Positions 1,013 through 29,190 are shown, counted from the stretch's first letter. The stretch: 64,000 nucleotides of DNA from Bacteroidota bacterium (GCA_049644265.1 JBARRO010000048.1:2886-66885); one strand, 5' to 3'. Notes: a model not told the origin generated them from the letters alone. Made by a program: numbers and translations.

Positions 1013-1043
1013 ACGGCTTCTCCTTCGTGCAAGAGGTGAATGG

Positions 1044-1508: not shown

Positions 1509-1585
1509 GGGAATAGAAAGGATGGTGAAACGATACTTAATTTATTAAGGCCATAGAGCCATCTGTCTTTACTAATGTAAGGTGC

Positions 1586-1650
1586 AAACCTTGCTTTGTC
1601 AAGGTTTTTTTTCACAAAAAAAAGCCGGCCGCCCAAACGGACGGCCGGCT
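1586..1650. terminator. Back-to-back intrinsic terminator hairpins (bidirectional)
   Basis: AACCTTG-ctttgt-CAAGGTT followed by T8 (plus sense, 1587-1612). Then A8 followed by GCCGGCCG-N10-CGGCCGGC (1624-1649), which on the minus strand reads hairpin + T8 directly downstream of nagA. Confidence 0.6.
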
Positions 1651-1672
1651 CAAACCCGATTCCTATGCAGCA

Positions 1673-2848
1673 TTATCCCGCCGCTTCCATCATCGAAAAC
1701 TTCACCGACCCTTCGGAGACGGTCATCTGAACTTCGAATTCCTTGTCAAGCACCACGAGATCCGCATCCTTCCCCACCGCGATGATGCCCTTGTGATGGG
1801 ATAAACCCAGGACCTTCGCACCGTTGAGTGACGCCATGCGAACTGCGTCGGTCAACGGGACGCCAACGAGCTGAACCATGTTCTTCACCGCCTTCTCCAT
1901 CGTCAACGTGCTACCCGCAAGTGTCTTGTTCCCCAGATATGCCTTCTTTCCCTTCACGTAGATCTTCTGGTCCATGAACGTGTATTCGCCATCCGGCATT
2001 CCTGAAGCACGGATGGCGTCCGTGATCAGCAAAATTCCCCCCTCACCCTTAATCTTGTAGATCAACTTCATGACGGCGGGGTGGACATGAATACCGTCTG
2101 CGATAAGCTCCACCTTCAGTTCGTTGTGCAGAAGCGCCGCAAGGACGACTCCCGGTTCCCTGTGATGGAACGGCCGCATCGCGTTGAACATGTGCGTCAC
2201 ATGAGCAGCGCCGTTATCGATCGCGGAAAGGACTTCCTGATAATTCGCAGAGGAGTGCCCGATGGACAGAACCACGTCGTTCTTTGCAGCCGCACGCATG
2301 ACTTCTTCCACTCCGGGAAGTTCGGGTGCAATGGTCATTAAACGAATATATCCCTGACTAGCTTCGAACAGCTTCTGCCATCCTTTTGTCGAGGGCTGCC
2401 AGAGATAGTCGACCTTCATGGCACCGTGAAGGTCGCGATTGATGAATGGACCTTCAAGGTGGATGCCCCAAACATTCTTCGAGCCCTTTGAAATACGGCA
2501 AAATTCGGCAATCCGCGAGACATCCGCGATCATGTCCTTTTCCGGCTTACTGTAGAGAGCTGCAAGAAGGCCCGTTGTTCCATGAGAGAAAAAGAATTGC
2601 GAAATCTTCTCGACCGCTTCGACACTCATATCCGCAAAGCCGTAACCACCGCCCCCGTGAACAAGCAGATCGATAAATCCCGGGGTGAGCATCATCCCTT
2701 CGCCATCGTACACCTTCATGGTCTTGGGAATTTCTATTTCTTTTGGTCCGCCGATAGAGGAAATCTTTTTCCCGTCGATCACGACGGTTCCCTTCTCCAA
2801 GATCCGGAACGGAGTAATGATGTCGATATTCTTGATGGCAAAGCTCAT
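1673..2848 (-). CDS. nagA: N-acetylglucosamine-6-phosphate deacetylase
   Basis: 391 aa. Metal-dependent amidohydrolase fold with HGGGG and GIHLEGPF motifs characteristic of NagA. Confidence 0.8.
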   Translation of the reverse strand: MSFAIKNIDIITPFRILEKGTVVIDGKKISSIGGPKEIEIPKTMKVYDGEGMMLTPGFIDLLVHGGGGYGFADMSVEAVEKISQFFFSHGTTGLLAALYSKPEKDMIADVSRIAEFCRISKGSKNVWGIHLEGPFINRDLHGAMKVDYLWQPSTKGWQKLFEASQGYIRLMTIAPELPGVEEVMRAAAKNDVVLSIGHSSANYQEVLSAIDNGAAHVTHMFNAMRPFHHREPGVVLAALLHNELKVELIADGIHVHPAVMKLIYKIKGEGGILLITDAIRASGMPDGEYTFMDQKIYVKGKKAYLGNKTLAGSTLTMEKAVKNMVQLVGVPLTDAVRMASLNGAKVLGLSHHKGIIAVGKDADLVVLDKEFEVQMTVSEGSVKFSMMEAAG

Positions 2849-2875
2849 AGAAGGGACTCTGGGATGTGCTGCTAG

Positions 2876-3535
2876 TTATGAGGAGCTTTTCCGGAGTGCG
2901 CCAACAGCGCCGCTTACGTCCGACTGATGAAAAATTGATGTGCCAGCCACCAGGACGCTTGCGCCGGCAGCGACGACCTCCCGGGCCGTAGTCAGATCAA
3001 TCCCACCGTCCACCTCAATTTCAATTTGTTTTCCGGACCGTTCAACCATCGCCCGTGTATCCCGAAGTTTCTTGAGAGATCCACGAATGAATTTCTGCCC
3101 TCCGAATCCCGGATTGACGGACATGATCAGGATCAGGTCCACATCCGGAAGCACTTCTTCAAGGGTAGCCACCGGTGTCGAAGGGTTCAACGCAACGCCG
3201 GCTTTCGCGCCAAGCTCCTTGATGCGGGCGACGGTTCTGTTCAGGTGCACGCAAGCCTCCTGGTGTACCGTGATAATATCGGCTCCCGCCGACCGGAATT
3301 CCTCGAGATATCGGTCGGGGTTTTCGATCATCAAGTGAGTGTCGAGCGGTTTGGCTGTAATCTTGCGGATGGACTTGATGACCGGCGGGCCGAAGGTGAT
3401 GTTGGGGACAAAATGGCCATCCATGATATCCAGATGGAGCCAGTCCGCGCCACCGTTTTCGGCGAGCTTGATCTGTTGCTGGAGATTCGAAAAATCAGAA
3501 GCGAGGAGCGATGGGGCAATCTTGAGGTTGGGCAT
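2876..3535 (-). CDS. rpe: Ribulose-phosphate 3-epimerase
   Basis: 219 aa. Shows PSLLASDF...LHLDIMDGHFVPNITFGP...VNPGFGGQKF...EVDGGI motifs. Confidence 0.9.
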   Translation of the reverse strand: MPNLKIAPSLLASDFSNLQQQIKLAENGGADWLHLDIMDGHFVPNITFGPPVIKSIRKITAKPLDTHLMIENPDRYLEEFRSAGADIITVHQEACVHLNRTVARIKELGAKAGVALNPSTPVATLEEVLPDVDLILIMSVNPGFGGQKFIRGSLKKLRDTRAMVERSGKQIEIEVDGGIDLTTAREVVAAGASVLVAGTSIFHQSDVSGAVGALRKSSS

Positions 3536-4359
3536 CAGTTTTCCAGTGTCGGTCGCCTGTCCCCCTTTTGTGCAACGAACAAATCAACAGGCTGCCCGAC
3601 GCTTGCAAGCTCGCCCCCTTTGGGATACTGATCGAGCACGGTGTTGGGAAGCAGGTCGAGACTTACCTGGTAGGTCACGGAGCCGATTTTGAATCCTGCC
3701 TGCGTGAGGACTTTCTCCGCCTCGGCGAGCGTCTTCATAACAACCTTGGGAACGGCTTGTTTGTTCGCGGTCCGGCCCTGACTGACCGTCACGCTCACGA
3801 ACGACCCATTCCTCACCTTCGTGCCCGCCTGGATCGCCTGGCTGATGACCGTGTTCTCAAAAAACTCGTCGGAAGGTTCGTATTGTATGCCCCCCAGCTT
3901 CAGGCCGTATTTCTCCAGGTTGAATGTCGCATCACGAATTGACCTGCCGCGAAGACTCGGGACAACAACCAGGACTTCTCCCCCACTGATCGTGAGATAA
4001 ACACCGCGACCGTATTTGACATCGGCCTCCGCAGAAGGAACCTGTTGAACGACCGTACCAACAGGATACTGCTTGTCCGGCTTGAATTCTGATTCCTTCG
4101 CTTCCAGTCCGCTTTCCTCAAGCACGCGCTTCGCCTCTTCAAGCGGAAGACCAACCACCGACGGAACTCTCGTGGTTTTCCCTTGTTGAACATAACGCGG
4201 CATGACGACGTCATCCACAAAAAAGAACAGGACGACGACTGCTCCGGTGATAACGGCAACGATTTTTGCGTACGATCGAAGCTGGGATTTGAGGATGGGC
4301 ATGGCTGACGGAAGAATATAGAAACAATTCCGTTGAGTATCAAATAAGTCCGCCGACAC
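3535..4359 (-). CDS. Membrane-anchored PASTA-domain protein (three PASTA repeats, no kinase/PBP domain)
   Basis: One TM helix (IVAVITGAVVVLFFF) followed by three ~65-aa repeats of the PASTA type (VPSVVGLPLEEAKRVLEESGL...; VVPSLRGRSIRDATFNLEKYGLK...; VPKVVMKTLAEAEKVLTQAGFK...). The true start is probably the internal Met (MPILKSQ...). Confidence 0.6.
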   Translation of the reverse strand: MSADLFDTQRNCFYILPSAMPILKSQLRSYAKIVAVITGAVVVLFFFVDDVVMPRYVQQGKTTRVPSVVGLPLEEAKRVLEESGLEAKESEFKPDKQYPVGTVVQQVPSAEADVKYGRGVYLTISGGEVLVVVPSLRGRSIRDATFNLEKYGLKLGGIQYEPSDEFFENTVISQAIQAGTKVRNGSFVSVTVSQGRTANKQAVPKVVMKTLAEAEKVLTQAGFKIGSVTYQVSLDLLPNTVLDQYPKGGELASVGQPVDLFVAQKGDRRPTLEN

Positions 4360-4393
4360 GTTCTTCTGTCCCCGATGTACTACGAGTCACACA

Positions 4394-5440
4394 GTGATTT
4401 CTGACCGGCCGGCTTCGTTGCATGGCAGTTCAAAGTTTTGTATCATTTTTCAACATTTCGTCCATCCTATGCTTGATGTCGAATCTTCACCAATCAGTGT
4501 TGCCGCCGAAAGAAGTTCTTCGCTCCAGAAGGATATTCTTCGGACACTGCTGTATTTTGACATCTTCAACCACCCGCTGACCGCCAAAGAGATCTACTCG
4601 TTCCTTCCCTCCAATTCCACAACCGCCTCTGCCGTGGAACAGGCGTGTTCATCCGAGCCGCTCCACGAGGTTATTACCCACGAGGGTCCTTACTTCCGCC
4701 TCCGCAGCGCGGGGGAAGACATTGTGGCGGACCGGCGCACGAAGGAATCCCGCGCCGCACGCTTATGGCGCATCGCCGTGTTCATGAGTCATATCATCCG
4801 CAGGTTCCCGTTCGTTCGGGCGGTGTTTGTTTCTGGTGAGCTATCCAAGGGAGTCGCGAGTCAAGACTCCGATATCGATTTTGTGATCGTCACCGCCGAG
4901 GGTCGACTCTGGATATGCAGGACCCTCCTCATTCTGTTTAAGAAAATGTTCCTGTTGAACAGCAAGAAATTCTTTTGCCTGAATCACTTTGTGTCCGCCG
5001 ACCACCTTGAAGCCGAGGACAGAAACGTATACACGGCAACCGAAATCGCCACACTCCAACCGCTCTACAACCTCGAACTCTTCAGGCAGTACCAACGCGT
5101 CAATGAATGGATTCAGACGTATCTACCGAACGCATCTACTATTTCTCATTCCCCCATCCGGAACGATCACCGCAGGTTGCTCATGCAACGTTTTCTGGAA
5201 TCACTTATCCTGTCGTCCGTTGCAGACAAAGTTGATCCATGGCTCCTGCAACGCTGGAAAATGGTCTGGCGCAAACGCTATCCGGAACTACCGACGGAAC
5301 GGCGCTCTCGTCTCTTTAAGTCTTCGCTCTATCTCTCCACGGCGTATGGACAGGATTTTCTCACACAAATTCTGACGAGATACCGGGACAGGCTCGAGCA
5401 GTCCAATCTCCTTTCGTACGACCACGGCCTTTCGAACTGA
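4394..5440 (+). CDS. Nucleotidyltransferase-fold (Pol-beta superfamily) protein, hypothetical; first gene of the tailoring operon
   Basis: Carries a GS-x10-DxD-like motif (SGELSKGVASQDSDIDFVIVT). Probable true start at MLDVESS (~4469). Abuts the next gene with a 9-bp spacing. Confidence 0.45.
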   Translation: MISDRPASLHGSSKFCIIFQHFVHPMLDVESSPISVAAERSSSLQKDILRTLLYFDIFNHPLTAKEIYSFLPSNSTTASAVEQACSSEPLHEVITHEGPYFRLRSAGEDIVADRRTKESRAARLWRIAVFMSHIIRRFPFVRAVFVSGELSKGVASQDSDIDFVIVTAEGRLWICRTLLILFKKMFLLNSKKFFCLNHFVSADHLEAEDRNVYTATEIATLQPLYNLELFRQYQRVNEWIQTYLPNASTISHSPIRNDHRRLLMQRFLESLILSSVADKVDPWLLQRWKMVWRKRYPELPTERRSRLFKSSLYLSTAYGQDFLTQILTRYRDRLEQSNLLSYDHGLSN

Positions 5441-5448
5441 TCAAGACC

Positions 5449-6942
5449 TTGCCGAATGTTCTTCTGACACACTCGTATTTCCTGAGGTTTGATCCAAAGG
5501 AGTACCGGGCCATGATGCCCTATCCTCCGCTGGGCACCCTCTATGCCGCCTCCTACCTCAGACAGCATGGAATTTCGGTTGCCCTCCACGATGTCATGCT
5601 TGCGGCAACTGAGGAAGAGATTGTGCCCGCAATCGCGGCTGCACAACCGTCCGTCGTGGCAATCTATGACGATGGATTCAACTACCTTTCGAAAATGTGC
5701 CTGACCCGGATGCGGCAGGCCGCATTCTCCATGACACAAATGGCTAAGGAGCGCGGGTGCACCGTGGTCGTCTTCAGCTCTGACGCCACAGACCATCTTG
5801 AGGAGTACTTCCGGCACGGTGCGGATTACGTGATCTGCGGAGAGGCTGAGGTCACCCTCGCCGAGCTGGTTCAATTTCTGACGGGGTCGTCTTCCCAAAC
5901 CCCGGAGATGATCAACGGACTCGCCTTTGTCAGGAAGGGCAACATCATAAAGACTGGACAGCGGAAAGTGCTCCAGGACCTCGATCAGTTGCCTTTCCCG
6001 GCATGGGACCTCGTCGATCTTCATCGTTATCGGTCAGCCTGGAAGAAACATCACGGATATTTTTCACTGAACATGGTGACAACCCGTGGGTGTCCCTTCC
6101 ACTGTAATTGGTGTGCGAAACCTCTGTATGGCCAGGTGTACCACGCGCGAAGCCCTGAGAATGTCGTTGCCGAAATGAAATACCTCAAGGAGTTTGCTCA
6201 GCCCGACCATATCTGGTTTGCGGATGACATTTTTGGACTTAAACCCGGTTGGGTGGAAAAATTCGCTTACCACGTGCAGAATGAGGACGCGAAAATCCCG
6301 TTCAAATGTCTGGCTCGAGTCGACTTGCTCCTTGAGAGGAACACGCTCCAGCAGCTCAGGGAAGCAGGTTGCGAAACAGTTTGGGTTGGTGCAGAATCGG
6401 GGTCCCAGAAAGTCCTCGACGCCATGGAAAAGGGAACCACGGTGGAACAGATTTACAGAGCCACATCCCTCCTTCGCCGAAACGGCATAAGGACCGGTTT
6501 TTTTCTCCAGTTTGGTTATCCAGGAGAAGATCGGGACGACATTCTGAAGACCATTGGAATGGTCAAGGATTGCATGCCGGACGAGATAGGAATTTCTGTT
6601 TCCTATCCCCTCCCGGGAACAAAGTTCTACGAACGCGTAAAGAATCAGCTGGCAGGAAAACAAAATTGGGCCGTGAGCCAGGATCTTGATCTCATGTTCG
6701 CCGGAGAGTTCTCACCCGATTTCTATCGAATGCTGCACCGGGTAGTTCACAAACAGTTCAAAATATGGCGCGGCCTCAGAGCCCTTAAAGCATTGTTTGT
6801 GCACCCCGGAGATCGTGTGAGGAACAAGATCCGATCCATCGCTTCCATGGTCTATTACGGTCTAACATTGCCCATCGATCGTATTCGCCTTCTTGCATTG
6901 GAAAAGGCGCCTCATGCCAGGATCAACGGCTATGCAGACTGA
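5449..6942 (+). CDS. Cobalamin-binding-domain radical SAM protein (class B)
   Basis: 497 aa. N-terminal Rossmann-like B12-binding region followed by a CPFHCNWC radical-SAM cysteine triad (CxxxCxxC). Confidence 0.75.
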   Translation: MPNVLLTHSYFLRFDPKEYRAMMPYPPLGTLYAASYLRQHGISVALHDVMLAATEEEIVPAIAAAQPSVVAIYDDGFNYLSKMCLTRMRQAAFSMTQMAKERGCTVVVFSSDATDHLEEYFRHGADYVICGEAEVTLAELVQFLTGSSSQTPEMINGLAFVRKGNIIKTGQRKVLQDLDQLPFPAWDLVDLHRYRSAWKKHHGYFSLNMVTTRGCPFHCNWCAKPLYGQVYHARSPENVVAEMKYLKEFAQPDHIWFADDIFGLKPGWVEKFAYHVQNEDAKIPFKCLARVDLLLERNTLQQLREAGCETVWVGAESGSQKVLDAMEKGTTVEQIYRATSLLRRNGIRTGFFLQFGYPGEDRDDILKTIGMVKDCMPDEIGISVSYPLPGTKFYERVKNQLAGKQNWAVSQDLDLMFAGEFSPDFYRMLHRVVHKQFKIWRGLRALKALFVHPGDRVRNKIRSIASMVYYGLTLPIDRIRLLALEKAPHARINGYAD

Positions 6943-7753
6943 GATCGTGTCAACAAGCTCTCATCAAGCCTCCGACGTTGCCCGGGCATTCGACGGTGTC
7001 GCCGGTGTCTTCGACCGGGATCTGGAGAACTCCATCACCGCCGAGCTCCGCCGACGGGTCTACAGCATACTGACTTCGTTGGTGCCCAGTGGATCCACCA
7101 TACTCGACATTAACTGTGGCACCGGCATCGACGCTTTGTTCCTTGCGGAAAGCGGTTATCGAGTGACCTGTATGGATGTCTCTTCAGCAATGATCGCAGA
7201 AGCGAAGAAGAAATTCAGCTTGAGAAGCGATCTGCAAACAGAATTCACGACAGGGTCCTTTGACGATCTTGCAGATAAGCATGTCCCACCAGTGGATATG
7301 ATCCTGTCAAATTTCGGTGGAATCAATTGTTCCGGCGACCTTGAAAGGACTGCGCAGGCGATCGCCTCTGCGATCAAACCCGGAGGATTCTTTGTCGGAG
7401 TCATCATGCCTCGGTTTTCGCTTTGGGAGTCTTCGTCCTATCTGCTTCACTTTCAATGGCGAAAGGCGAAACGCCGATTCGGCGGGATTGCCGCTGCGAC
7501 AGGATTCGGTAATCAGTTGTTCCCGGTCTATTACTATTCACCGGACGATGTCCTTGAAGCGTTCGGTGATGGATTCATCAAGAAACGCATCGCGGGTCTC
7601 AGCATAGTCGCCCCAACACCGCAATCGACCGGATTTGCCCAACGTCACCCTGGATTCGTCAGGCTTCTCTTCCGTCTCGACCGTTTCCTCCAATCCGTTC
7701 CAGTGCTTCGCTCCATTGGCGACCACTTTATCATTGTTCTGCAGAAGCAATGA
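6893..7753 (+). CDS. Class I SAM-dependent methyltransferase
   Basis: Motif I ILDINCGTGIDALFLAESG. Start probably at ATG 6914 or 6932, overlapping the 3' end of the preceding radical SAM gene. Confidence 0.7.
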   Translation: MHWKRRLMPGSTAMQTEIVSTSSHQASDVARAFDGVAGVFDRDLENSITAELRRRVYSILTSLVPSGSTILDINCGTGIDALFLAESGYRVTCMDVSSAMIAEAKKKFSLRSDLQTEFTTGSFDDLADKHVPPVDMILSNFGGINCSGDLERTAQAIASAIKPGGFFVGVIMPRFSLWESSSYLLHFQWRKAKRRFGGIAAATGFGNQLFPVYYYSPDDVLEAFGDGFIKKRIAGLSIVAPTPQSTGFAQRHPGFVRLLFRLDRFLQSVPVLRSIGDHFIIVLQKQ

Positions 7754-8907
7754 ACATCGGAACCATGAGATTCGTCGACCGGTTCGTCGGCGTTCCCCTT
7801 TGCTGGATCCTGGGAACGGCCTACAAGCTGGGCTCACCTTCGAAAGCAGCCTTAAGTCCCCGGGTGCGTCGCATTCTCGTCATGAAGTTCTTCGGACTGG
7901 GCAGCATCCTCTTGTCAACTCCTGCACTTCTGCTCATGGAGTCCGCATTCCCCGACGCAACCATCACATTTCTGAGTTTCGACAGGAACCGCGATCTGCT
8001 TCGTCGCTTTCCATCCATCGACTCCGTTCTTACTGTCCGTCGCACTTCCATCACAAATTTCCTTTCGGATTCCTTCAGGCTGATCCTTCACCTCGTGACT
8101 GTTCGATACGACGTGGTGTTTGACCTTGAGTTTTTTTCCAAGTTCTCGACGTTTCTTGCGGGACTCAGCAGGGCACGCATCCGGGCCGCATTTTCCCTGC
8201 CCACGTACTGGCGGTCCTCGCTTGTCACCCATTCCATTCCGCTTGCCAGGGATCGACATGTCACGGAATCATTCAGCTCCCTCGTCTTCGCCGTAACAGG
8301 AAGTCCGATGTCGATTCCTGCGGTCCAACCGCCTGCGGTCTACGAGGCAGACAGCCAGTCTCTCCTGAAAAAAATTCCGCTCGACGATGGCCCGGTCATC
8401 GGAGTCAACGTCAACGCGGGCGATACGTTCCTTGAACGCCGATGGCCTCCGGAACGGTTCGCAGCCCTTGTCTCCGCGCTTTCCCGCGAACATGGTTCGG
8501 TGTTCGTGTTCACAGGGATCTCGGAGGAACGCTCCTATGTGCAACATGTCATCGACATGTCGGGTTGCAGGAACCGGTGCATTAATTCCGCGGGCGATCT
8601 GAGCATGCCGGAGCTGGGAGCTCTCCTGAGGCACTGTTCTCTGGTAATCTCAAATGACAGCGGTACGCTCCATCTGGCCTCCGCGCTCGGAACTCCGACC
8701 ATCGGACTCTACGGCCCCGAGTCTCCGGAATTCTACGGAACAACAGGAAACGGAAGTTCGATCCTTTACAGCGGAATCTCCTGCAGCCCCTGCATGAATA
8801 TCTACTCGGCAAAATCCTTTCGCTGCCCGTACGATTCGCGTTGCATGAAACAAATCCCGTTGGCGGACGTTCTCGAGCTTGCTCAACACGAGGCTTTGGT
8901 GCACTAA
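7750..8907 (+). CDS. Glycosyltransferase family 9 (heptosyltransferase-like)
   Basis: N-terminus RILVMKFFGLGSILLSTPAL matches the GT9 consensus. C-terminal SNDSGTLHLASALGTPTIGLYGP nucleotide-sugar motif. ATGA start/stop overlap with the upstream gene. Confidence 0.7.
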   Translation: MNIGTMRFVDRFVGVPLCWILGTAYKLGSPSKAALSPRVRRILVMKFFGLGSILLSTPALLLMESAFPDATITFLSFDRNRDLLRRFPSIDSVLTVRRTSITNFLSDSFRLILHLVTVRYDVVFDLEFFSKFSTFLAGLSRARIRAAFSLPTYWRSSLVTHSIPLARDRHVTESFSSLVFAVTGSPMSIPAVQPPAVYEADSQSLLKKIPLDDGPVIGVNVNAGDTFLERRWPPERFAALVSALSREHGSVFVFTGISEERSYVQHVIDMSGCRNRCINSAGDLSMPELGALLRHCSLVISNDSGTLHLASALGTPTIGLYGPESPEFYGTTGNGSSILYSGISCSPCMNIYSAKSFRCPYDSRCMKQIPLADVLELAQHEALVH

Positions 8908-10130
8908 TGCGCTTCCTCCAAAACACAGCCCTTCTCGCATTGACTGCATTCCTCTTATATCGCGGGATTATTCCTGCGTTGACAACTGTTGACACAGACT
9001 TCCCGAATTACTACACGGCATCGCGGTTGTTCATCGAGGGGAGGAACATGCAGAAGATCTACGATGACCGGTGGTTTCAGCAAGAAATCGTGCGATACGG
9101 AATGAACCAGGAGGGAAAATTCTCTCCCTTCCCTCCGGCGACAACGTTCATCATGATTCCGTTCGCATTCCTCACGCCCCTGAACGCCTTGCGTGTCTGG
9201 ACGGTGCTCAATTGCGGAATTCTGGCAGCCCTGATTGCCCTCCTTGCGCACGTCACCGGCAAGTCGTGGAAGTGGAGCGCGTTGCTGACGCTTGCAAGCG
9301 GCCACGCACTCGCCAACAATTTTCGATTCGGCCAGGTGTATCTGTTTCTCGCGTTCTTTATCCTTGCCGCTTATGCTCATTGGGTCAAGGAACGGGCAGT
9401 TCAGAGCGGTGCCCTGTTGGGCATCTCTGCCGCGTTCAAGTATTTTCCACTTGTTTTCATTCCGTATTTTCTGTTCCGAAGAGAGTGGAAGCTTGTAGCC
9501 GCTGAAATTGGGTCACTCATCGCTGTGATCATTCTGGGGTTGTGGACATTCGGTCTGGAGGTCCACAAGGAGTTCATCTCCACAATTCCTGCAAATCATC
9601 TGTACGGAAACATCCAGAATCCGTTCAGTGCTACATTCCAGTCCTGGAATAGTCTTTTCCGCAGGCTGTTTGTGCACGATCCGGCCCTCAATCCGAATCC
9701 TGTATTGGACCTCCCCTCGGCATTCCCGATTGCTCTGGCGCTCGTATATGGGGCTGTCTTAATTCTGCTTGTTCGGGGATTCAGGAAATCCCTTCGTTTG
9801 TCGGACGACCAATCTTCGCGTGTTCAGTTTTCCCTGATCATGCTTGCGGGCTTGTTGCTTCTTCCGGTCTCGGCAACGTACCACTTTCTCCTCCTCGTGG
9901 TTCCTGTCGGAATTCTTCTCAGCCAGGCCGGCCAACATTGGACCCGAACAGAGCAGGCATTTGCTGTCGTCTTTGTACTCATCGGATTCATTCCGTACAA
10001 CCTGCTGACCAGATTCGATTCCCACGGGCTGCTTTCAGTGTTTGCGTATCCGCGCCTCCTCCTGATGACCGGCCTATTTGCTCTTGCGGTGAACGAACCG
10101 AGAGAACGAATAGGGGACAACGCACGATGA
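8841..10130 (+). CDS. Polytopic membrane glycosyltransferase of the DUF2029/GT87-like type
   Basis: About 11 predicted TM helices with conserved aromatic/basic loops (FKYFPLVFIPYFLFRREWK). Likely start at MRFLQNT (~8907), overlapping the upstream stop. Confidence 0.5.
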   Translation: MHETNPVGGRSRACSTRGFGALMRFLQNTALLALTAFLLYRGIIPALTTVDTDFPNYYTASRLFIEGRNMQKIYDDRWFQQEIVRYGMNQEGKFSPFPPATTFIMIPFAFLTPLNALRVWTVLNCGILAALIALLAHVTGKSWKWSALLTLASGHALANNFRFGQVYLFLAFFILAAYAHWVKERAVQSGALLGISAAFKYFPLVFIPYFLFRREWKLVAAEIGSLIAVIILGLWTFGLEVHKEFISTIPANHLYGNIQNPFSATFQSWNSLFRRLFVHDPALNPNPVLDLPSAFPIALALVYGAVLILLVRGFRKSLRLSDDQSSRVQFSLIMLAGLLLLPVSATYHFLLLVVPVGILLSQAGQHWTRTEQAFAVVFVLIGFIPYNLLTRFDSHGLLSVFAYPRLLLMTGLFALAVNEPRERIGDNAR

Positions 10131-11623
10131 TCATCCTCCTCAACCCTAAAAGCGCACGGCACAATCGCAGGATTCCGCTCTCCATCCTTACGGTTGGAGC
10201 AGGTCTTGAAGGGCAGCACAAGTACGAGATCGTTGACGAAAACTTTGAAGACCATGTCGAAGAACTGTTGGAACAGACGATTCGCGCAAAGGACGTCAAA
10301 TACCTTGGGCTGACTGTTATGCCGGGACCGCAGCTGTCGCGCGCGATCACGATTTCAAAACGTATGAAGCGCCAATTCCCCCACCTCTGCATCCTCTGGG
10401 GCGGCACATTCCCGAGCATCCATACCGACACGGTCCTTTCATCGGGCTATGTCGATGTCGTTGTCCTCGGTCAGGGCGAGGTCGTGTTGCCCAACTTCCT
10501 TCACACGGTTGAAAACGGAGGATCCCTGGATTCTGTCAAGGGTCTCGCCTATCGCCAGGATGGAACGACCCGATACACTCCTCGACAGGAATGGCAGCAT
10601 CCCGACCTTGAGCCTCCTCTTCCCTACCACAACATCGACGTCTTCCGTTACCTCCAGCGGACATATCTTGGGCGGCGGACCACAGCGTATCATTCAAGCC
10701 TTGGTTGTCCGTTTCAATGCGGATTCTGCAGCGTCGTTTCCATATTCGGCGGAAGATGGTTTGCCCAAAGCGCCGAACGAGTCGCCAGAGAGTTGGTCTC
10801 TCTGAAAAATCGTTTCGGCGTTGACTCGGTCGAATTTTTCGACGACAATTTTTTTACTTCGGAACGACGCGTGGAAGAATTTAGTGACCGGATGATGACT
10901 CACGGAATGAAATGGTGGGGAGAAGGGCGGAGCGATACCATTTTTCAGTACTCCGACACAACGTTGGGAAAAATGCGGGATGCGGGATGTAGGATGATTT
11001 TTACAGGCGCGGAAACGAGTTCATCGGACACCCTGCGCCTCATGAACAAGGGAGGGACGCAGGACGCCGGACTTCTGCTTGAATTTGCAGCACGGATTCG
11101 GGAGTTCAACATCATTCCGGAGTTCTCGTTTGTGTTCGGGAGTCCGTCGGAAGATGTCGACGGAGACATTGAGAGGGATATTCAGTTTATCAAGAAAATC
11201 AAGGACGTGAATCCCCGGAGTGAGATCATTTTCTATGTGTACGCCCCCGTCCTGCTCCCGGGCGCTGCGATCTTTGAGGAAGCGAAGAAATATGGATTTG
11301 ACTATCCAAAAACCCTTGACGAATGGCTCGAGCCAAAGTGGCAAAATCTTGACCTGCGAAAGAAGCCCATGACGCCATGGATCCGGCCCCGCCACGTCCG
11401 CCGCATCATGAATTTCGAGCGCGTCATCAGCGCCCAGTACCCGTCCATCTCCGATTTGCGGCTTACCGAACCGAGAAGACAATTTCTCAAAGCGTTAAGC
11501 TCCTGGCGTTATAATTACGACATCTACAATGCCCCGTATGAAATCCGTTTCTTTCTGAGCAAGGTTTTTAAGTATCGTCAACCGGAGCTCGAAGGGGCTG
11601 CACAGTATCCGACGAATGCCTGA
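9938..11623 (+). CDS. Cobalamin-binding-domain radical SAM protein (second copy, class B)
   Basis: Likely start at MIILLNP (ATG 10127, overlapping the upstream stop). N-terminal B12-binding-like region and a CPFQCGFC triad. Confidence 0.75.
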   Translation: MDPNRAGICCRLCTHRIHSVQPADQIRFPRAAFSVCVSAPPPDDRPICSCGERTERTNRGQRTMIILLNPKSARHNRRIPLSILTVGAGLEGQHKYEIVDENFEDHVEELLEQTIRAKDVKYLGLTVMPGPQLSRAITISKRMKRQFPHLCILWGGTFPSIHTDTVLSSGYVDVVVLGQGEVVLPNFLHTVENGGSLDSVKGLAYRQDGTTRYTPRQEWQHPDLEPPLPYHNIDVFRYLQRTYLGRRTTAYHSSLGCPFQCGFCSVVSIFGGRWFAQSAERVARELVSLKNRFGVDSVEFFDDNFFTSERRVEEFSDRMMTHGMKWWGEGRSDTIFQYSDTTLGKMRDAGCRMIFTGAETSSSDTLRLMNKGGTQDAGLLLEFAARIREFNIIPEFSFVFGSPSEDVDGDIERDIQFIKKIKDVNPRSEIIFYVYAPVLLPGAAIFEEAKKYGFDYPKTLDEWLEPKWQNLDLRKKPMTPWIRPRHVRRIMNFERVISAQYPSISDLRLTEPRRQFLKALSSWRYNYDIYNAPYEIRFFLSKVFKYRQPELEGAAQYPTNA

Positions 11624-11634
11624 GGTCGCAGCCC

Positions 11635-12657
11635 ATGAACGTGAACGCATTCCTCAATACTGTCACGAACGCTCATCGCACGCTGCCTCTCGTCATCCTG
11701 TATGTTACGGAAGGATGTAACATGCAGTGCACGATGTGCTCCTATCGGGATCCCCTGCCAAATGAACTTGCTCTGGCCGAAATTGAAACACTCGCAACGG
11801 ATCTGGTCTCTCACGGGCTGAGGCATATCGTCTACTCCGGCGGTGAACCACTTCTGCGAAGGGATTTTGACCGAATCTGCGCTGCGTTCCACGCACTTGG
11901 CGTTCGGCAGTCGTTGTTGACCAATGGTCTGCTGCTTGAAAAGCGTGCAGACCTTGCAGGATGTTTTGAGGAAATCATTGTTTCTCTCGACGGCCCTACC
12001 GCCAAGGTTCACGATACAATCCGAAGGACAAACGCCTTTGGACAAATACTCCGGGGAATCTCCAGGGTTCGACAAACTGCACATCCGCCAACGATGTCGA
12101 TCCGAACAGTGGTCCAAAAGGCCAACTACCGGCACCTCCCGGAGATGGTGCACTTTGCCCGGAGTCTCGGCGTCGGGAGAATTTCCTTCCTCGCAGCCGA
12201 CGTTCTTTCGTCGGCGTTCGGACGCGGAACGGTCAGCTCACCAGATCCTGCACTCATGCTCAGCGAAGAGGAGGCCACGGATTTCAGAGCTATCGTTGAG
12301 CGCATGACAAACATGTTCAGGGAGGATTTTGACAGCCATTTTATCGCTGAATCACCATCAAAAATGTTCCATTTGGTCCAATATTTTGAGGCATTGCTTG
12401 GGAAATCCTCATTCCCGCTGAATCGCTGCAATGCTCCGATGGTATCGGCTGTAATCACTTCGACCGGCGACGTGCACCCGTGCTTCTTCCTGCCTTCCCT
12501 TGGAAATCTGCGTCATGAAAATGCGTCCGGGATCCTCGAATCTCCCCAAGCCGGCATGGTTCGGAAGGATGTTCGTCAGTATCGCCTCGACCGCTGCAAG
12601 ACCTGCGTGTGCACACTGCATGTCAGCCCTGGTCGTGCATTGTTTGATAGATTCTGA
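11635..12657 (+). CDS. Radical SAM protein with C-terminal SPASM/twitch-like Cys-rich domain
   Basis: CNMQCTMC (CxxxCxxC) near the N-terminus. C-terminal cysteines CNAPMV...CFFLPS...RCKTCVC. Confidence 0.7.
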   Translation: MNVNAFLNTVTNAHRTLPLVILYVTEGCNMQCTMCSYRDPLPNELALAEIETLATDLVSHGLRHIVYSGGEPLLRRDFDRICAAFHALGVRQSLLTNGLLLEKRADLAGCFEEIIVSLDGPTAKVHDTIRRTNAFGQILRGISRVRQTAHPPTMSIRTVVQKANYRHLPEMVHFARSLGVGRISFLAADVLSSAFGRGTVSSPDPALMLSEEEATDFRAIVERMTNMFREDFDSHFIAESPSKMFHLVQYFEALLGKSSFPLNRCNAPMVSAVITSTGDVHPCFFLPSLGNLRHENASGILESPQAGMVRKDVRQYRLDRCKTCVCTLHVSPGRALFDRF

Positions 12658-12848
12658 CCATTTGATAAGATGACACCGAGGTCACAGAGGAAGAGGAGAA
12701 CACAGAGGTTTATGACTTTGAAATTGGAGGGATAATCTTAAATCCCGTTTCTTTTTTCCGAAGACTTCTGAATCCATTACACACCCTTCCTCCTCGGGAG
12801 GCGTACGATCGTTGGGCTGCGACCTATGATGACCATGCCGGCAATGCC

Positions 12849-13472
12849 GTGCTCTTTGCTGAAGAAAACGCACTCCTCCCGCTTCTTGATGCTCTTCCAC
12901 TGAATTCCTCCACCGTTGCAGATTTTGGATGCGGCACCGGTCGTCATTTCCGTGATCTTCTTGATAGGGGAGCCCGCAACGTCGTCGGCGTCGACTATTC
13001 CCTCCCCATGCTTCTGCATGCGCGGGATAAGTCTCTGAACACCAACGTCACTCTTTTCCAATCCGGCCTCGAGCACCTCCCCTTCTGCAATGAATCCTTT
13101 CACTTTGGACTTTCCGCTCTCGTGCTTGGCCACCTGGGCGATATCGACGCCTCCATCAAAGAATTTCACCGGGTCCTGAAGCCCGGTGGGAGGTTGATTC
13201 TAACGGACCTTCATGAGAGTTTTGAAGAACGGGGATGGAAGCGAACATTCACTGAAGGCGGAAAGAAATTTGCTGTCCGAAATTATCCTCATTCGATGGG
13301 TGAGTATCAGAATGCTTTTCGTTCCCACAATTTTGTGGTGGAGAAAGCATCCCAGCCAACCATTGACGACACGCTCCGTCCGTTGTTTGAAAGGACCGGG
13401 CACATCGAAACGTTCGAACGGTTCCGGGATCGACCTCTCCTCATTGTCTTCCAGGTGAGAAAGAAAGGATGA
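12849..13472 (+). CDS. Class I SAM-dependent methyltransferase (N-terminus probably extends upstream of the listed start)
   Basis: Motif I VADFGCGTGRHF. The in-frame upstream sequence encodes a conserved-looking MTase N-terminus (...REAYDRWAATYDDHAGNAVLF...) with no canonical start codon back to the stop at 12666. A GGAGGG Shine-Dalgarno sits at 12726-12731. Confidence 0.65.
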   Translation: MLFAEENALLPLLDALPLNSSTVADFGCGTGRHFRDLLDRGARNVVGVDYSLPMLLHARDKSLNTNVTLFQSGLEHLPFCNESFHFGLSALVLGHLGDIDASIKEFHRVLKPGGRLILTDLHESFEERGWKRTFTEGGKKFAVRNYPHSMGEYQNAFRSHNFVVEKASQPTIDDTLRPLFERTGHIETFERFRDRPLLIVFQVRKKG

Positions 13473-14659
13473 AACGAGGGACGGTACTCCTCGATGGGAA
13501 TGTCTTCACCGGGGAACGGTTTGAGCTCTTATCGCTAAGGGTCGTTCAAGGCGTCGTTTCGGACATCGAAGCGCGACTGGAGCCGGACACTGCAGACATC
13601 GTGGTGCCGCTTAACGGCCTAGCCGTTGTCCCCGGGCTTATCAACAGTCATGACCACCTTGAGTTCAACCTTTTTTCGCATCTGGGACATCCGCCGTACC
13701 AAAACTATGTGCAATGGGCCGATGATATCCAGAACTCATTTCGCACCCCGATAAATCAGGTCTTGGCCGTCCCCCTTCGTGACCGATTCTTATGGGGTGC
13801 GTATAAGAACATTTTCAGCGGGGTTACGACCGTCATTCATCACAACGATTTCAACTGGAGGTTTCGATTCGGGTTCCCCCTTGAAGTGCATAAGAACTAC
13901 CGCTGGATTCATTCTCTTCGGCTTGAAAAACGGCCACTTCATGAACTTGTTCGGCAAAGTGGTCGTCCGGTCTTTATCCATCTTGCGGAAGGAATTGACG
14001 AAATGGCCCGATCCGAGATCAGGGAATTGGACGGCTTGGGAGGACTCAATAAGGAAACAATCATTGTCCACGGCGTCGGCATAGGCGACGCAGATATTCC
14101 GCTGATGGATAAATCCTGTGGACTTGTCTGGTGTCCGGGATCGAACAGGTATCTGTTTGGAGCGACGGCGCCCGTCGAACAACTGGTTGGAAGAATTCCT
14201 GTCGCTCTGGGAACGGACTCGACACTGACCGGACCGAATGGCCTGTTCGAAGAAATCCGTATTGCCCTGCAGATGAAGAATCTCTCTCCCGACATTCTCT
14301 TTCACATGGTTACATCGATGCCCGCCCGCATGATCGGCTCAGACAAGGGGTCAATTGCACGGGGATCGCCCGCCGACCTTCTGATTTTCGATGCCCGGGG
14401 CAAGGATCCCATGGATGCATTCGTGCATCTCAACCCGACGGACGTGAAATTCCTGCTCAAGAACGGTTCGCCGATATTCGGCGATAGAGAGTTCCTTCCA
14501 CAGTCCGGGAAGAGATGGAAAAAGCGCTCTTTGGTGAGAGTCTGCGGTAAACCCAAATTCGTTCTCGGCGATTTCAATAGCTTGCTTGCGAGGACGAAAA
14601 AGCAACTCCCAGCATCTGTTTTGCCGGAATATGTGACGGCGATTGAGGCGGATGGATGA
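13469..14659 (+). CDS. Amidohydrolase-family (metal-dependent hydrolase) protein
   Basis: 396 aa. INSHDHLEF metal-binding motif plus downstream HG/D residues typical of the amidohydrolase superfamily. ATGA overlap with the upstream MTase. Confidence 0.65.
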   Translation: MKRGTVLLDGNVFTGERFELLSLRVVQGVVSDIEARLEPDTADIVVPLNGLAVVPGLINSHDHLEFNLFSHLGHPPYQNYVQWADDIQNSFRTPINQVLAVPLRDRFLWGAYKNIFSGVTTVIHHNDFNWRFRFGFPLEVHKNYRWIHSLRLEKRPLHELVRQSGRPVFIHLAEGIDEMARSEIRELDGLGGLNKETIIVHGVGIGDADIPLMDKSCGLVWCPGSNRYLFGATAPVEQLVGRIPVALGTDSTLTGPNGLFEEIRIALQMKNLSPDILFHMVTSMPARMIGSDKGSIARGSPADLLIFDARGKDPMDAFVHLNPTDVKFLLKNGSPIFGDREFLPQSGKRWKKRSLVRVCGKPKFVLGDFNSLLARTKKQLPASVLPEYVTAIEADG

Positions 14660-15168
14660 CGAAACATTGCATCTCTCTGCAATGTTCTCTATCTTTTTCG
14701 CGTGAAATCAAACCCCGACTCCTGCCACTACAGCGTGAAGCCCTGATGTCAACCCTCTACAGAGAGCTCGCGACAATTGCTCAAAGAGCAAAAGTCCGCG
14801 CCCATGCTCCCTATTCCAAGTTTCGGGTGGGAGCAGCAATCCTCACGAAGAACGGTGAAGTCTTCACCGGCTGCAACATTGAAAACAGTTCCTACAGCCT
14901 GACCATCTGCGCAGAACGGACTGCAATCTTCAAAGCGATCTCCGAGGGTAAAGGCAAAGAAGGATTCAAAGCCATCGCCATCGCTTCTGACGATCCGGGA
15001 CACACTCCTCCCTGCGGCGCCTGTCGCCAGGTGCTCATAGACCTCGCTGGAAACATCGATGTCATCCTTGTAAACCCCAAGATGAAACTTAAGACAATGA
15101 AGCTTAAGTTCCTTGTCCCAATGGCATTTACAGACAAGAATCTCAAGCGCACACGAAGGAAAAAATAA
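14656..15168 (+). CDS. cdd: Cytidine deaminase
   Basis: CAERTAI ... PCGACRQ zinc-binding motifs. Likely true start at MSTLYRE (~14746). Confidence 0.8.
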   Translation: MTKHCISLQCSLSFSREIKPRLLPLQREALMSTLYRELATIAQRAKVRAHAPYSKFRVGAAILTKNGEVFTGCNIENSSYSLTICAERTAIFKAISEGKGKEGFKAIAIASDDPGHTPPCGACRQVLIDLAGNIDVILVNPKMKLKTMKLKFLVPMAFTDKNLKRTRRKK

Positions 15169-15171
15169 TAC

Positions 15172-15747
15172 ATGGATACTTCTGAGTTGCACAACATACC
15201 AAGAAATACCGGTTGGATCGAAGTCGTTTGCGGATGCATGTTCAGCGGAAAGACCGAGGAGCTCATTCGAAGATTGCGAAGAGCACAGATCGCCAGGCAG
15301 AAGGTGGCAGTCTTCAAACCTCGAATCGACAAACGTTACAGTGCGGAGCACATTGTTTCCCATAGCGAACAATCGCTCGTCTCAACGGTCGTAGATGACG
15401 CCTCGGATATTCTTAAGCAGGCGGGAGATGCCCAGGTTATTGGGGTTGACGAGGGTCAGTTCTTTAAGGCTAATCTTGTCGAAGTGTGTGAAGCGTTAGC
15501 CAACAACGGAAAACGGGTTATTGTGGCCGGTCTGGATCAGGATTATCGTGGAAAACCATTTGAACCGATGCCCCAACTCCTTTCAATAGCGGAGTATATC
15601 ACCAAAACCCTCGCGATCTGTGTCGTCTGCGGAAATCCCGCAGACCGCACCCAAAGGACCTCGGCATCGAGTGAGAGAGTTGTGGTTGGGGCCAAAGAGA
15701 TGTACGAGGCTCGATGCAGGCGGTGTCACCAACCTCCAAAGGAATAG
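15172..15747 (+). CDS. tdk: Thymidine kinase
   Basis: P-loop [11 protein letters not shown] and C-terminal zinc ribbon CxxC...CRRC, typical of type II TK. Confidence 0.9.
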
Positions 15748-16039
15748 TAGAACTTTATTAGTGCATTACCTTGAAATATAAAGAGTTATCAATTGTTAAG
15801 AAACCAACAGTTGAATATAAAATCAACTTTTGGGCACTTGCGTGGAACTGAGTTTGGGATTCAATCATTTTCGGTTTTCCTACTTCCAAGGGTTCGCCAA
15901 GTGACTCTACCGCAAACAGCTGCAACCCAGAGAACATCCAGAGATATCGTTGATTGTCCACGCGTGCTCCCGTTATTGAGCCCTTTTCAAAAAAATAGCA
16001 TTTCGATTTTGTTCCAAGGTCATCTCCGATTGAACTTCC

Positions 16040-16930
16040 TTGCAACCAGCATGGTTCTGGCTTGTGGAGTCGAATTTGCCATCTAAGCAGCTCACAGAGC
16101 TTGAAAAGACGCATCTTGATGAGGCATTTCGGTTCGTGAGGTCCAAAACAAGACTCCGCCCCAAGATTGCGCTGATTCTTGGCTCTGGACTGGGAAATTT
16201 TGCGAAAGTCCTAAAAGTCGAGTCTTCCCTTTCATCCGGCCAAATTCCCTACTACCCTCAATCCTCCGTCCAAGGTCACGCGGGAAAGCTCATTTTTGGG
16301 TTTGTTAAAGCAGGGAACGAGTCCTCTCCCCCGGTTCTCGTGCTCAAAGGCAGAGTTCACTTCTACGAATCCGGATCTCTTGACCGCGTCGTTTTCCCCA
16401 TTCTCCTCTTGCATCGGCTGGGAATTAACTCTCTCATTGTCACAAATGCTGCGGGGGGAGCCAACAGACAGTTCAGTCCCGGAGATCTGATGTTGATTAA
16501 GGACTTCATCCAGATTTCCATGCCCCCTGCTTCAATTCCCGGGAGGAAATCCCCCGGTCGCTTTCTTCGTGCAGAACGCCGTCCGTCGTTTGACGATGGA
16601 CTGCAGGAAATCATCAGAGGAGCAGCTGCAGAGTGTGAGATTCCCCTTCAAGAAGGCACGTACTGCTGGTTCAAGGGCCCGTCCTACGAGACCCGTTCAG
16701 AGGTGCAAATGGCAAAGAGGCTGGGGGCGGATGCGGTGGGAATGTCGACAGTTCCGGAAGTCGTAGCTGCCTGTCAGCTCGGTATGCGCGTCGCGGGGAT
16801 TTCGTTGATTTCAAACCTTGCTACCGGCATCTCCCTGGAGAAGCTTTCTCATCAGGAGGTTACGGACACAGCCAATCGTGTGCAGGCGCGGTTCACAAAC
16901 CTCCTGCGTACCACACTTCTTAACCTGTAA
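16040..16930 (+). CDS. punA: Purine nucleoside phosphorylase (PNP-I/PunA family)
   Basis: IALILGSGLG...GHAGKLIFG...MSTVPEV motifs. The true start is probably an internal alternative start. Confidence 0.8.
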   Translation: MQPAWFWLVESNLPSKQLTELEKTHLDEAFRFVRSKTRLRPKIALILGSGLGNFAKVLKVESSLSSGQIPYYPQSSVQGHAGKLIFGFVKAGNESSPPVLVLKGRVHFYESGSLDRVVFPILLLHRLGINSLIVTNAAGGANRQFSPGDLMLIKDFIQISMPPASIPGRKSPGRFLRAERRPSFDDGLQEIIRGAAAECEIPLQEGTYCWFKGPSYETRSEVQMAKRLGADAVGMSTVPEVVAACQLGMRVAGISLISNLATGISLEKLSHQEVTDTANRVQARFTNLLRTTLLNL

Positions 16931-16938
16931 TCCTTCCC

Positions 16939-17370: not shown

Positions 17371-17393
17371 GAGGATTGATTCAGGGGCGGGGA

Positions 17394-19339: not shown

Positions 19340-19343
19340 GAAG

Positions 19344-28403: not shown

Positions 28404-28404
28404 T

Positions 28405-29175: not shown

Positions 29176-29190
29176 CGAATAAATCTCCTC

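Follow-up and report, generated by a model that had tools for sequence, protein, structure and literature searches.

We analysed a 64,000-nucleotide stretch of DNA from a Bacteroidota bacterium (GCA_049644265.1 JBARRO010000048.1:2886-66885), referred to here as the window, which carries at positions 4394-14659 a run of genes for radical S-adenosylmethionine (SAM) enzymes, methyltransferases, glycosyltransferases (GTs) and an amidohydrolase. The original prediction, made from the sequence alone, described this run as nine co-directional genes. We found that all nine open reading frames (ORFs) exist on the plus strand and are tightly packed, with the genes proper, g1 to g9, occupying 4469-14659. 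The proteins of the window were scanned with Pfam and NCBIfam profiles, the curated NCBIfam equivalog cut-offs serving as the test of family membership, and junctions and start codons were read directly from the window sequence. Pfam agrees with the domains that had been predicted for all nine genes, and the motifs quoted at the time, CPFHCNWC, CPFQCGFC, CNMQCTMC, CKTCVC and INSHDHLE, are all present in the translations.

The first gene, g1 (4469..5440, +), encodes a protein with winged-helix and Pol-beta-type nucleotidyltransferase domains. Its ORF opens with a GTG at 4394, and the likely start is the ATG at 4469, which gives a protein of 323 amino acids. After the g1 stop at 5440 the TTG start of g2 (5449..6942, +) follows at 5449, 8 nt further on. 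g2 encodes a radical SAM enzyme with a B12-binding domain (B12-rSAM) and the motif CPFHCNWC. Relatives cover 98-99% of this long ORF and thus the 476-residue version of g2 at NCBI is probably too short. g2 overlaps by 11 nt with g3 (6932..7753, +), which starts with ATG at 6932, encodes a class I SAM methyltransferase of 273 residues (type MTa) and is called in the same way on the identical contig L001 (L-numbers denote loci of relatives). Next come g4 (7750..8907, +), encoding a GT9 glycosyltransferase, g5 (8907..10130, +), encoding a polytopic GT87 glycosyltransferase of the GT-C type, and g6 (10127..11623, +), encoding a second B12-rSAM with the motif CPFQCGFC. A gap of 11 nt separates g6 from g7 (11635..12657, +), which encodes a radical SAM enzyme with a partial SPASM domain, containing CNMQCTMC and CKTCVC. 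The last two genes encode another class I SAM methyltransferase (g8, type MTb; 12744..13472, +, with an approximate start) and a predicted COG0402 deaminase-type amidohydrolase containing INSHDHLE (g9; 13469..14659, +).

Four short overlaps had been proposed between these genes. Three of them are ATGA sequences, at 7750 (g3/g4), 10127 (g5/g6) and 13469 (g8/g9), as described. The fourth, at 8904, is incorrect; the g4/g5 junction reads TAATG and the g5 ATG lies at 8907. The three ATGA overlaps argue for co-expression. For g8 the listed ORF begins with GTG at 12849. We found that the conserved N-terminus (NPVSFFRRLLNPLHTLPPREAYDRWAATYDDHAGNA) reaches back from this codon to about 12744, and that 12744-12848, when translated in frame 2, agrees with the N-termini of the g8 orthologs of L002 and L088. 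Since that stretch contains no ATG, GTG or TTG, the conserved N-terminus lies upstream of the first such codon, which suggests that translation starts at a rare codon or that the sequence contains an error. The sequence GGAGGG followed by ATA ATC is seen at about 12735-12750.

Scans for promoters and terminators gave counts not above those of shuffled sequence. The sole item of note was a hairpin with a 9-bp stem and a T-rich run at 14663-14686. It immediately follows the g9 stop, precedes the likely start of cdd at 14746 and may be the terminator of the locus. An Rfam scan of window positions 1-20000 found neither a cobalamin riboswitch nor another element.

Predicted activities of the nine proteins

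The g1 protein gives a weak Pfam match to NTP_transf_2 (17.7 bits against a cut-off of 21). It contains the G[SE]-x(9-13)-DxD motif and the nucleotidyltransferase fold of the Pol-beta superfamily, and it shares the fold of aminoglycoside nucleotidyltransferases. We infer that the g1 product is a nucleotidyltransferase that looks active and also has a winged-helix domain, and that its link to the locus is loose. It founds a family of winged-helix plus KNTase-like nucleotidyltransferases for which there is no Pfam model, and some metagenome-assembled genomes (MAGs) hold two copies. Stand-alone paralogs are found at L071 10004-10921 (after uvrC, in Candidatus Kryptonium thompsonii) and at L085 9839-10897. 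An attempt to read the function of g1 from the neighbours of these paralogs was dropped, the neighbours being unrelated (uvrC, DUF4159, a two-component system). Exact-sequence look-ups of g1 and g7 returned no record for either.

Both g2 and g6 carry CxxxCxxC within the Radical_SAM domain (PF04055) and an N-terminal Rossmann-type B12-binding domain (PF02310). The Pfam scores of g2 are 40.0 bits for B12-binding (cut-off 32.1) and 77.9 bits for Radical_SAM (cut-off 29.5), and those of g6 are 43.8 and 40 bits against the same two cut-offs. g2 is the most conserved gene of the locus, with relatives that are 57-69% identical. Its NCBIfam scores are below all cut-offs: HpnJ at 143.2 bits against 577.6, BchE at 139.7 against 481, the ladderane profile at 114 against 360 and PhpK at 113.8 against 600. 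Similarly, g6 reaches no NCBIfam cut-off (BchE, 105.6 against 481). With scores 4- to 10-fold under the cut-offs, we ruled out g2 and g6 as hopanoid, bacteriochlorophyll, phosphonate, ladderane or methyl-coenzyme M reductase (MCR)-type enzymes. The best Protein Data Bank (PDB) matches of g2 are AprD4 (6fd2), QCMT (9ccb) and OxsB, and g6 matches AprD4, CysS, TokK and QCMT, so that CysS and TokK also stand among the solved relatives of the pair. PDB entry 9ccb is QCMT, a protein glutamine C-methyltransferase (PMC12931638). These nearest solved relatives are mixed in activity: AprD4 is a cobalamin-free sugar diol dehydratase and OxsB is non-methylating, while QCMT, CysS and TokK are methylases. 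Because AprD4 and OxsB are among them, methyl transfer is only a possible activity of g2 and g6. The third head gene, g3, matches Pfam Methyltransf_25, Methyltransf_11 and Methyltransf_12.

We found that g4 contains a GT9 domain (PF01075, 105.2 bits against a cut-off of 22) and falls short of the NCBIfam equivalogs for WaaC (64.8 bits against 185.3), WaaF (heptosyltransferase II, 98.9 against 134.6) and WaaQ (heptosyltransferase III, 102.7 against 170.2). Its best PDB matches are 3tov and WaaF (1psw), and WaaC was also matched. A conserved segment (M1-C18) extends the protein at the N-terminus, and its C-terminal part contains a Cys4 motif, CxxC...CxxxxxC (C345, C348, C359 and C365; window 8782-8844), which is conserved in 90-93% of 29 orthologs. 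This motif may be a metal-binding knuckle, a feature unusual for lipopolysaccharide (LPS) heptosyltransferases such as WaaC or WaaF. g5 matches GT87 (PF09594, 100.4 bits against 25) and does not reach the NCBIfam equivalog for PimE (38.7 against 413). In its first extracytoplasmic loop D53, F54, Y57 and Y58 are at least 95% conserved in 24 orthologs, and D53 is the first-loop Asp typical of GT-C enzymes. The GT9-GT87 pair is found in 24 loci, and the g5-type gene lies downstream of a g4-type GT9 gene everywhere but in L073.

The g7 protein combines a radical SAM domain (PF04055, 77 bits) with a Cys-rich auxiliary-cluster region that matches SPASM (PF13186, 35.6 bits against 21.5). C28, C32, C35, C265, C283, C321, C324 and C326 do not vary among 13 orthologs, with CX12GX4C and CxxCxC at the C-terminus. 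Since there are five C-terminal Cys in all, we read this SPASM domain as partial. The best PDB match of g7 is BlsE (7vob, 5e-17), a nucleoside-sugar decarboxylase. g8 matches Methyltransf_11 (75 bits) and g9 matches Amidohydro_1 (74 bits). The residues of g9 that correspond to the COG0402 deaminase pattern, H61, H63, H171-x-x-E174, H201 and D250, are at least 95% conserved, and its HxH, HLAE, VHG and GTDS motifs align with those of 8-oxoguanine deaminase, aminofutalosine deaminase (2imr) and the atrazine chlorohydrolase AtzA, the PDB entries aligned being 3hpa, 7ww2, 2imr and 4v1x; TM0936 was also matched. The earlier call of an INSHDHLE amidohydrolase thus holds for the domain, and by signature and alignment it can be refined to a putative aromatic-amine deaminase of COG0402 rather than a deacetylase. 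All NCBIfam scores of g9 are 61 bits or less against cut-offs of 294-617, so no equivalog is assigned, and g9 may deaminate 5'-deoxyadenosine or S-adenosylhomocysteine (SAH). The catalytic motifs of the locus are intact in the three CxxxCxxC sites, the GT-C loop Asp and the HxH/HxxE/H/D of the deaminase.

Distribution and modular make-up of the locus

A profile of g1 was scanned against 185,579 species genomes, one genome per species, and relatives were found in 228 of them. The locus comparisons rest on the best 80 of these 228, all of which are MAGs. By their closest relatives these 80 are of the Ignavibacteria/Kryptonia type, some being labelled Chitinophagales, Chlorobiaceae or similar, and the closest protein relatives are labelled Ignavibacteriales, Ignavibacteria or Ignavibacteriae. 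For g1, g2 and g9, proteins with 100% identity are found in a MAG labelled Bacteroidota bacterium. We found g1 followed by g2 in 72 loci. The full nine-gene order together with cdd-tdk recurs in L017, at amino-acid identities of 50% (g1), 67% (g2), 48% (g3), 53% (g4), 52% (g5), 72% (g6), 59% (g7), 39% (g8) and 52% (g9). L002-L004 (g2 67% identical) and L088 (g2 66%) have the same gene order and the same flanks without g7, which in further loci takes another position or orientation. The arrangement is shared by dozens of genomes, with amino-acid identities of 40-70%, and is far beyond chance. Co-localisation in other genomes, a check that had been proposed for the operon, is therefore confirmed by this neighbourhood comparison, and the contrary outcome, that homologs never co-localise, was not seen.

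To describe the content of the relatives, all ORFs between g1 and cdd/tdk were clustered in the 72 loci. B12-rSAM genes were the most numerous (134 genes in 71 loci, one to four per locus), followed by MTa methyltransferases of the g3 type (51), g4-type GT9 (29) and GT87 (24, plus two divergent GT87 groups). Less frequent were a metallophosphoesterase resembling YaeI/LpxG (18), GT4 (16 + 5), SPASM radical SAM enzymes (13), a second, WaaF-like GT9 type termed GT9b (11; 120.6 bits against 134.6 for heptosyltransferase II) and a HemK2-like methyltransferase with an MTS domain (10; 85.4 bits against 87). MTb methyltransferases of the g8 type numbered 6, as did g9-type amidohydrolases, the latter count being an underestimate because the inventory DNA reaches 10 kb past g1. 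GT2 and an MsbA-like ABC exporter (MsbA_rel, 283 bits) were each found 5 times, a Wzx-type flippase and a BepA-like M48 protease 3 times each, and GT29-like proteins twice alone and 3 times fused to MTa. Single or rarer items were a Wzy_C-like protein (a weak match), a Bac_transf phosphoglycosyltransferase and a polysaccharide deacetylase.

These genes are arranged as a head followed by cassettes. The head consists of the nucleotidyltransferase-like g1, one or two B12-rSAM genes and then a methyltransferase gene, of which g2, with or without its paralog, followed by g3 is near-universal. Behind it, GT9 plus GT87, the g6-g8-g9 triad and g7 are optional or exchangeable, and GT9 plus GT87 alternates with GT9b plus GT4, with or without GT2, behind the same head. 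In L078 the head stands alone directly before cdd. g1 is missing in L088 and is solitary beside unrelated genes in Candidatus Kryptonium (L071) and L085. Our data do not bear out the idea of a single nine-gene operon with one product; the locus is modular, and its cassettes come, go and swap among the 72 loci.

Pairing of radical SAM and methyltransferase genes is common throughout. Among the 120 B12-rSAM genes with a downstream neighbour in the DNA examined, 63 lie directly before a class I methyltransferase gene and 26 before another B12-rSAM gene, with a median spacing of a 4-nt overlap. A g3-type gene follows a B12-rSAM gene in 45 cases (median overlap 4 nt), and a g6-type gene is followed by a methyltransferase gene in most loci. 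In L025 (16408-17118) and 9 other loci the g6-type gene is followed by the MTS-domain methyltransferase instead of g8-g9. The score of this methyltransferase, close to the cut-off for HemK2/MTQ2 protein glutamine methyltransferases, hints at N-methylation of an amide or amine. The triad of B12-rSAM, methyltransferase and amidohydrolase, with overlapping genes, is found in L089, L090, L092 and L093, where the amidohydrolases are 37-42% identical and a SPASM radical SAM gene usually adjoins. We had considered g9 as a member of the cdd-tdk-punA nucleoside-salvage block, and this was ruled out by context, since g9 travels with the B12-rSAM and methyltransferase genes away from cdd.

The flanks of L092 and L093 differ from those of the other loci, with ApbE, RuvB and QueG in one and ClpB and a sulfotransferase in the other. 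These two loci still group radical SAM, methyltransferase, amidohydrolase, GT9/GT87 or GT4, ABC exporter, Wzy_C-like and Bac_transf phosphoglycosyltransferase genes. Because the gene set is kept with different flanks, the linkage is not merely inherited synteny. In some long-read-derived loci (L005 11550-13807; L093 5530-7796) the radical SAM, B12-binding and methyltransferase ORFs are fragmented into pieces of 87-272 residues, as pseudogenes or through indel errors.

Possible products of the locus

Our preferred reading, to which we give an even chance, is that the locus is the local version of a modular Ignavibacteria-type envelope glycoconjugate pathway, whose product is most likely a lipid-anchored glycan resembling an LPS core or O-antigen. 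We favour this because the pan-locus has five GT families, two kinds of flippase, a ligase/polymerase-like protein and a phosphoglycosyltransferase, as well as a WaaF-like GT9 and LpxG/YaeI-like and BepA-like proteins, and because its GT cassettes are exchanged at one fixed site of the core genome. AprD4 and OxsB, among the nearest solved relatives of g2, and BlsE, the nearest of g7, have sugars or nucleosides as substrates. A glycan or glycolipid substrate had been preferred over a ribosomally synthesised and post-translationally modified peptide (RiPP) from the outset. We found no precursor-like ORF, and a glycan or glycolipid is the better reading.

We infer the acceptor, the donors, the order of steps and the chemistry of such a pathway as follows. 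On the cytoplasmic face g4 would glycosylate a lipid-anchored acceptor from a nucleotide sugar. The intermediate would then be flipped; in relatives the locus includes a gene for an MsbA-like ABC exporter or for a Wzx flippase. In the periplasm g5 would add a further sugar from a polyprenyl-phosphate sugar. The g2-g3 and g6-g8 units would tailor sugars or their substituents by radical C-H chemistry (C-methylation or rearrangement) followed or accompanied by O- or N-methylation, and g7 would modify a nucleotide-sugar-like substrate. g9 would hydrolyse an aromatic amine, which could belong to an intermediate of the pathway or to 5'-deoxyadenosine and SAH, by-products with an adenine moiety released by its two partners encoded upstream. 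A more specific proposal, which we regard as speculative and rather doubtful, is that the radical SAM-methyltransferase units install C-methyl or extended alkoxy groups on an LPS-core-like glycolipid or ring-contract one of its sugars, while the coupled deaminase processes an adenine-bearing intermediate or by-product. If true, no characterised system would offer a precedent for this class of envelope-glycan tailoring.

Several observations weigh against an envelope glycan. All nine proteins stay under the curated equivalog thresholds, so that each specific activity given above is a prediction, and the top profiles of g2 (HpnJ, BchE, ladderane, PhpK and the MCR Gln methylase) are equally weak. 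The window itself has no flippase, ligase, Kdo (3-deoxy-D-manno-oct-2-ulosonic acid) transferase, phosphoglycosyltransferase or sugar-nucleotide synthesis gene. Since the head is found without any GT in L078 and L064, it may act on something other than a glycan. B12-domain radical SAM enzymes are also known in lipid-tail, tetrapyrrole, phosphonate and peptide chemistry. Finally, the evidence is wholly genomic and comes from MAGs.

The locus had been described as unlike LPS-core, hopanoid, bacteriochlorophyll and known RiPP clusters. Consistent with this, no protein reaches an NCBIfam equivalog cut-off for hopanoid, bacteriochlorophyll, waa or RiPP enzymes, and literature searches (DUF2029 or heptosyltransferase with radical SAM; Ignavibacteria) found no paper describing the cluster. 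Like waa/rfb-type and undecaprenyl-phosphate-linked glycan loci, the pan-locus has GT9, GT4, GT2, GT-C, MsbA-like or Wzx, Wzy_C-like, phosphoglycosyltransferase and methyltransferase genes, with variable GT cassettes at a fixed chromosomal site. When compared with a canonical waa locus, GT9 is present in the window, and MsbA-like, Wzy_C-like (weak), GT4 and GT2 genes are present in some relatives only. Unlike waa/rfb-type loci, each locus here contains one to four B12-domain radical SAM genes, and there are a SPASM radical SAM gene and a deaminase-type amidohydrolase gene. We know of no characterised waa or rfb locus with any of these three, and our literature searches found none either. The window also differs in having no WaaA, WaaL or sugar-nucleotide genes by Pfam, and g4 in being under the heptosyltransferase cut-offs and carrying the extra Cys4.

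The placing of a B12-domain radical SAM gene directly beside a class I methyltransferase gene recalls pairs of cobalamin-dependent radical SAM enzymes and O-methyltransferases, such as CysS/CysF in cystobactamid and GenK/GenD1 with GenN/GenL in gentamicin biosynthesis, and CysS, TokK and AprD4 are among the solved relatives. In contrast to the CysS/GenK-type pairs, the similarity is weak (E 1e-5 to 1e-18) and the setting is a core-genome, putative envelope locus and not a secondary-metabolite cluster. g9 resembles known COG0402 deaminases (TM0936/MtaD, acting on SAH, methylthioadenosine (MTA) and 5'-deoxyadenosine; aminofutalosine and 8-oxoguanine deaminases; AtzA) in its motifs and in an alignment over the C-terminal 180 residues. 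It differs in its invariable translational coupling to methyltransferase and B12-rSAM genes, a context undescribed for those enzymes. The known part of the system is an envelope glycan site with variable GTs. Two things are unfamiliar: the B12-domain radical SAM genes, which are constantly present in numbers of one to four and are each paired with a methyltransferase gene, and the radical SAM-methyltransferase-deaminase triad.

It is unlikely, in our view, that the locus instead remodels membrane lipids, with the radical SAM enzymes acting on hydrocarbon chains or turning a glycosyl head group into a carbocycle (like Tes/Grs, HpnP/R, HpnJ or calditol synthase) and the GTs supplying the head group of an unusual glycolipid. 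HpnJ (143 bits) and the ladderane lipid radical SAM enzyme (114 bits) are the best NCBIfam matches of g2, but these scores are far under the cut-offs of 577.6 and 360. The combination of GT, hydrolase and B12-domain radical SAM genes follows the logic of HpnI-HpnK-HpnJ (GT, deacetylase and ring contraction by a B12-domain radical SAM enzyme) and of archaeal calditol synthase, which act on a lipid-bound sugar (PMC13459092); unlike hopanoid tailoring, the GTs here are GT9 and GT87 rather than GT2 and the hydrolase is predicted to be a deaminase rather than a deacetylase. A fatty-acid desaturase gene adjoins the cluster in L092. Neither the locus nor the scanned ORFs of the window include a squalene-hopene cyclase or other hpn gene, no lipid-synthesis gene (cyclase, prenyltransferase, acyltransferase) recurs in the inventoried loci, and the Wzx, Wzy_C-like, Bac_transf and MsbA-like genes indicate lipid-linked glycans. 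There is also a small chance that no single product exists, g1-g2-g3 being a conserved housekeeping set of unrelated function that happens to lie beside a hot spot for glycan cassettes and a deaminase that scavenges by-products. The solitary head in L078, the solitary or missing g1 elsewhere, the highly variable cassette content at one chromosomal site and the presence of SAH, MTA and 5'-deoxyadenosine deaminases in the family of g9 fit such a juxtaposition. However, L092 holds the head, GT4s, ABC exporter and the g6-methyltransferase-amidohydrolase-SPASM set together at a different site, radical SAM-methyltransferase units recur in the variable part too, and the ATGA overlaps in the window argue for co-expression. 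If the units were unrelated, the locus would be an ordinary variable glycan site beside a housekeeping pair of unknown role.

A protein-directed system seems quite improbable. It would be a Bacteroidota-style general O-glycosylation or post-translational methylation pathway, in which the GT-C or Wzy_C-like protein serves as transferase or ligase and the radical SAM enzymes and methyltransferases methylate the glycan or side chains. To our knowledge the characterised GT9 enzymes all act on LPS cores, the autotransporter heptosyltransferases excepted, and TibC-type enzymes are not among the PDB matches of g4. The locus is not organised around metG-wzx, contains no gene for a substrate or precursor and offers no evidence of the D(S/T)(A/I/L/V/M/T) type. 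In its favour, the MTS-domain cassette scores just under the HemK2/MTQ2 protein methyltransferase cut-off (85.4 bits against 87), QCMT, a protein glutamine C-methyltransferase, is the second-best solved relative of g2 (PMC12931638), and Bacteroidota O-glycosylation loci likewise combine conserved ends with variable GTs, have methylated glycans and await discovery of their transferase and ligase (PMC12871550). We consider a diffusible natural product, whether a RiPP or an aminoglycoside-like or nucleoside-derived compound, very improbable. In its favour, the solved relatives AprD4 and BlsE belong to the biosynthesis of aminoglycoside and nucleoside antibiotics, g1 shares its fold with aminoglycoside nucleotidyltransferases and g9 is of a nucleobase deaminase type. 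Against this, the locus occupies a syntenic core-genome site across a class-level lineage with no compositional sign of horizontal transfer, its nucleoside-salvage flank is independent of its content and absent in L092/L093, and no precursor ORF, cyclitol synthase, aminotransferase, non-ribosomal peptide synthetase or polyketide synthase gene, or resistance/export set recurs in the inventoried loci. A RiPP cluster in particular was ruled out, as neighbouring genes are no more than 11 nt apart outside the g7-g8 gap, which corresponds to the g8 N-terminus, and no small ORF family recurs across the 72 loci. An anti-phage defence system was also ruled out. PADLOC gave only generic matches to a radical SAM core (pVip, 68 bits) and a methyltransferase domain (mad2), and none for g1, g2, g4, g5, g6 or g9.

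If the envelope glycoconjugate reading is true, a class-level lineage of widespread environmental bacteria devotes up to four cobalamin-type radical SAM enzymes to its cell surface. Its envelope sugars or lipids would have C-alkyl or rearranged structures new to LPS chemistry, and envelope biogenesis would require B12. The locus also offers several uncharacterised subfamilies, namely two clades of B12-domain radical SAM enzymes, a Cys4-bearing GT9 and a winged-helix nucleotidyltransferase family, in addition to the radical SAM-methyltransferase-deaminase triad.

Flanking genes and the remainder of the window

Upstream of the locus a divergent gene (3535..4359, -) encodes a membrane PASTA-domain protein (three Pfam PASTA matches). 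It is found at the same position in L002, L005, L086, L087 and L088 and serves as a synteny anchor that we do not assign to the pathway; rpe also lies upstream. Downstream are cdd (14746-15168, +; NCBIfam cytidine deaminase, 139 bits against 113.65), tdk (15172-15747, +; Pfam TK) and a gene for a PNP-family phosphorylase (16040-16930, +; Pfam PNP_UDP_1). Since relatives of the cdd product have 133-150 residues, cdd most likely starts at 14746 and hence does not overlap g9. The cdd-tdk-PNP flank follows loci of any content and is absent at L092 and L093. The cdd-tdk-punA genes are therefore housekeeping synteny anchors and not part of the pathway, and the hint of a nucleoside-derived product that had been drawn from them falls away. 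A horizontal-transfer island was ruled out, with no break in G+C content or skew between locus and flanks.

The rest of the window holds housekeeping genes (cox genes, bshC, pnp, ribF, infB, nusA, trpE and lnt). Plus-strand ORFs with no Pfam match at the thresholds used lie at 77-1039 (320 residues), 28345-29790 (481 residues) and 50469-51428 (319 residues), the second of which shares its position with ORFs on the minus strand and might not be a real gene. Beyond rpe there is a second Amidohydro_1 protein of 391 residues (1673-2848, -), and the relatives examined have an AsnC-type regulator and glnA at this place. An 884-residue multi-haem cytochrome c (24282-26936, -) adjoins COX1/COX2, CtaA and UbiA genes in an ordinary respiratory context.

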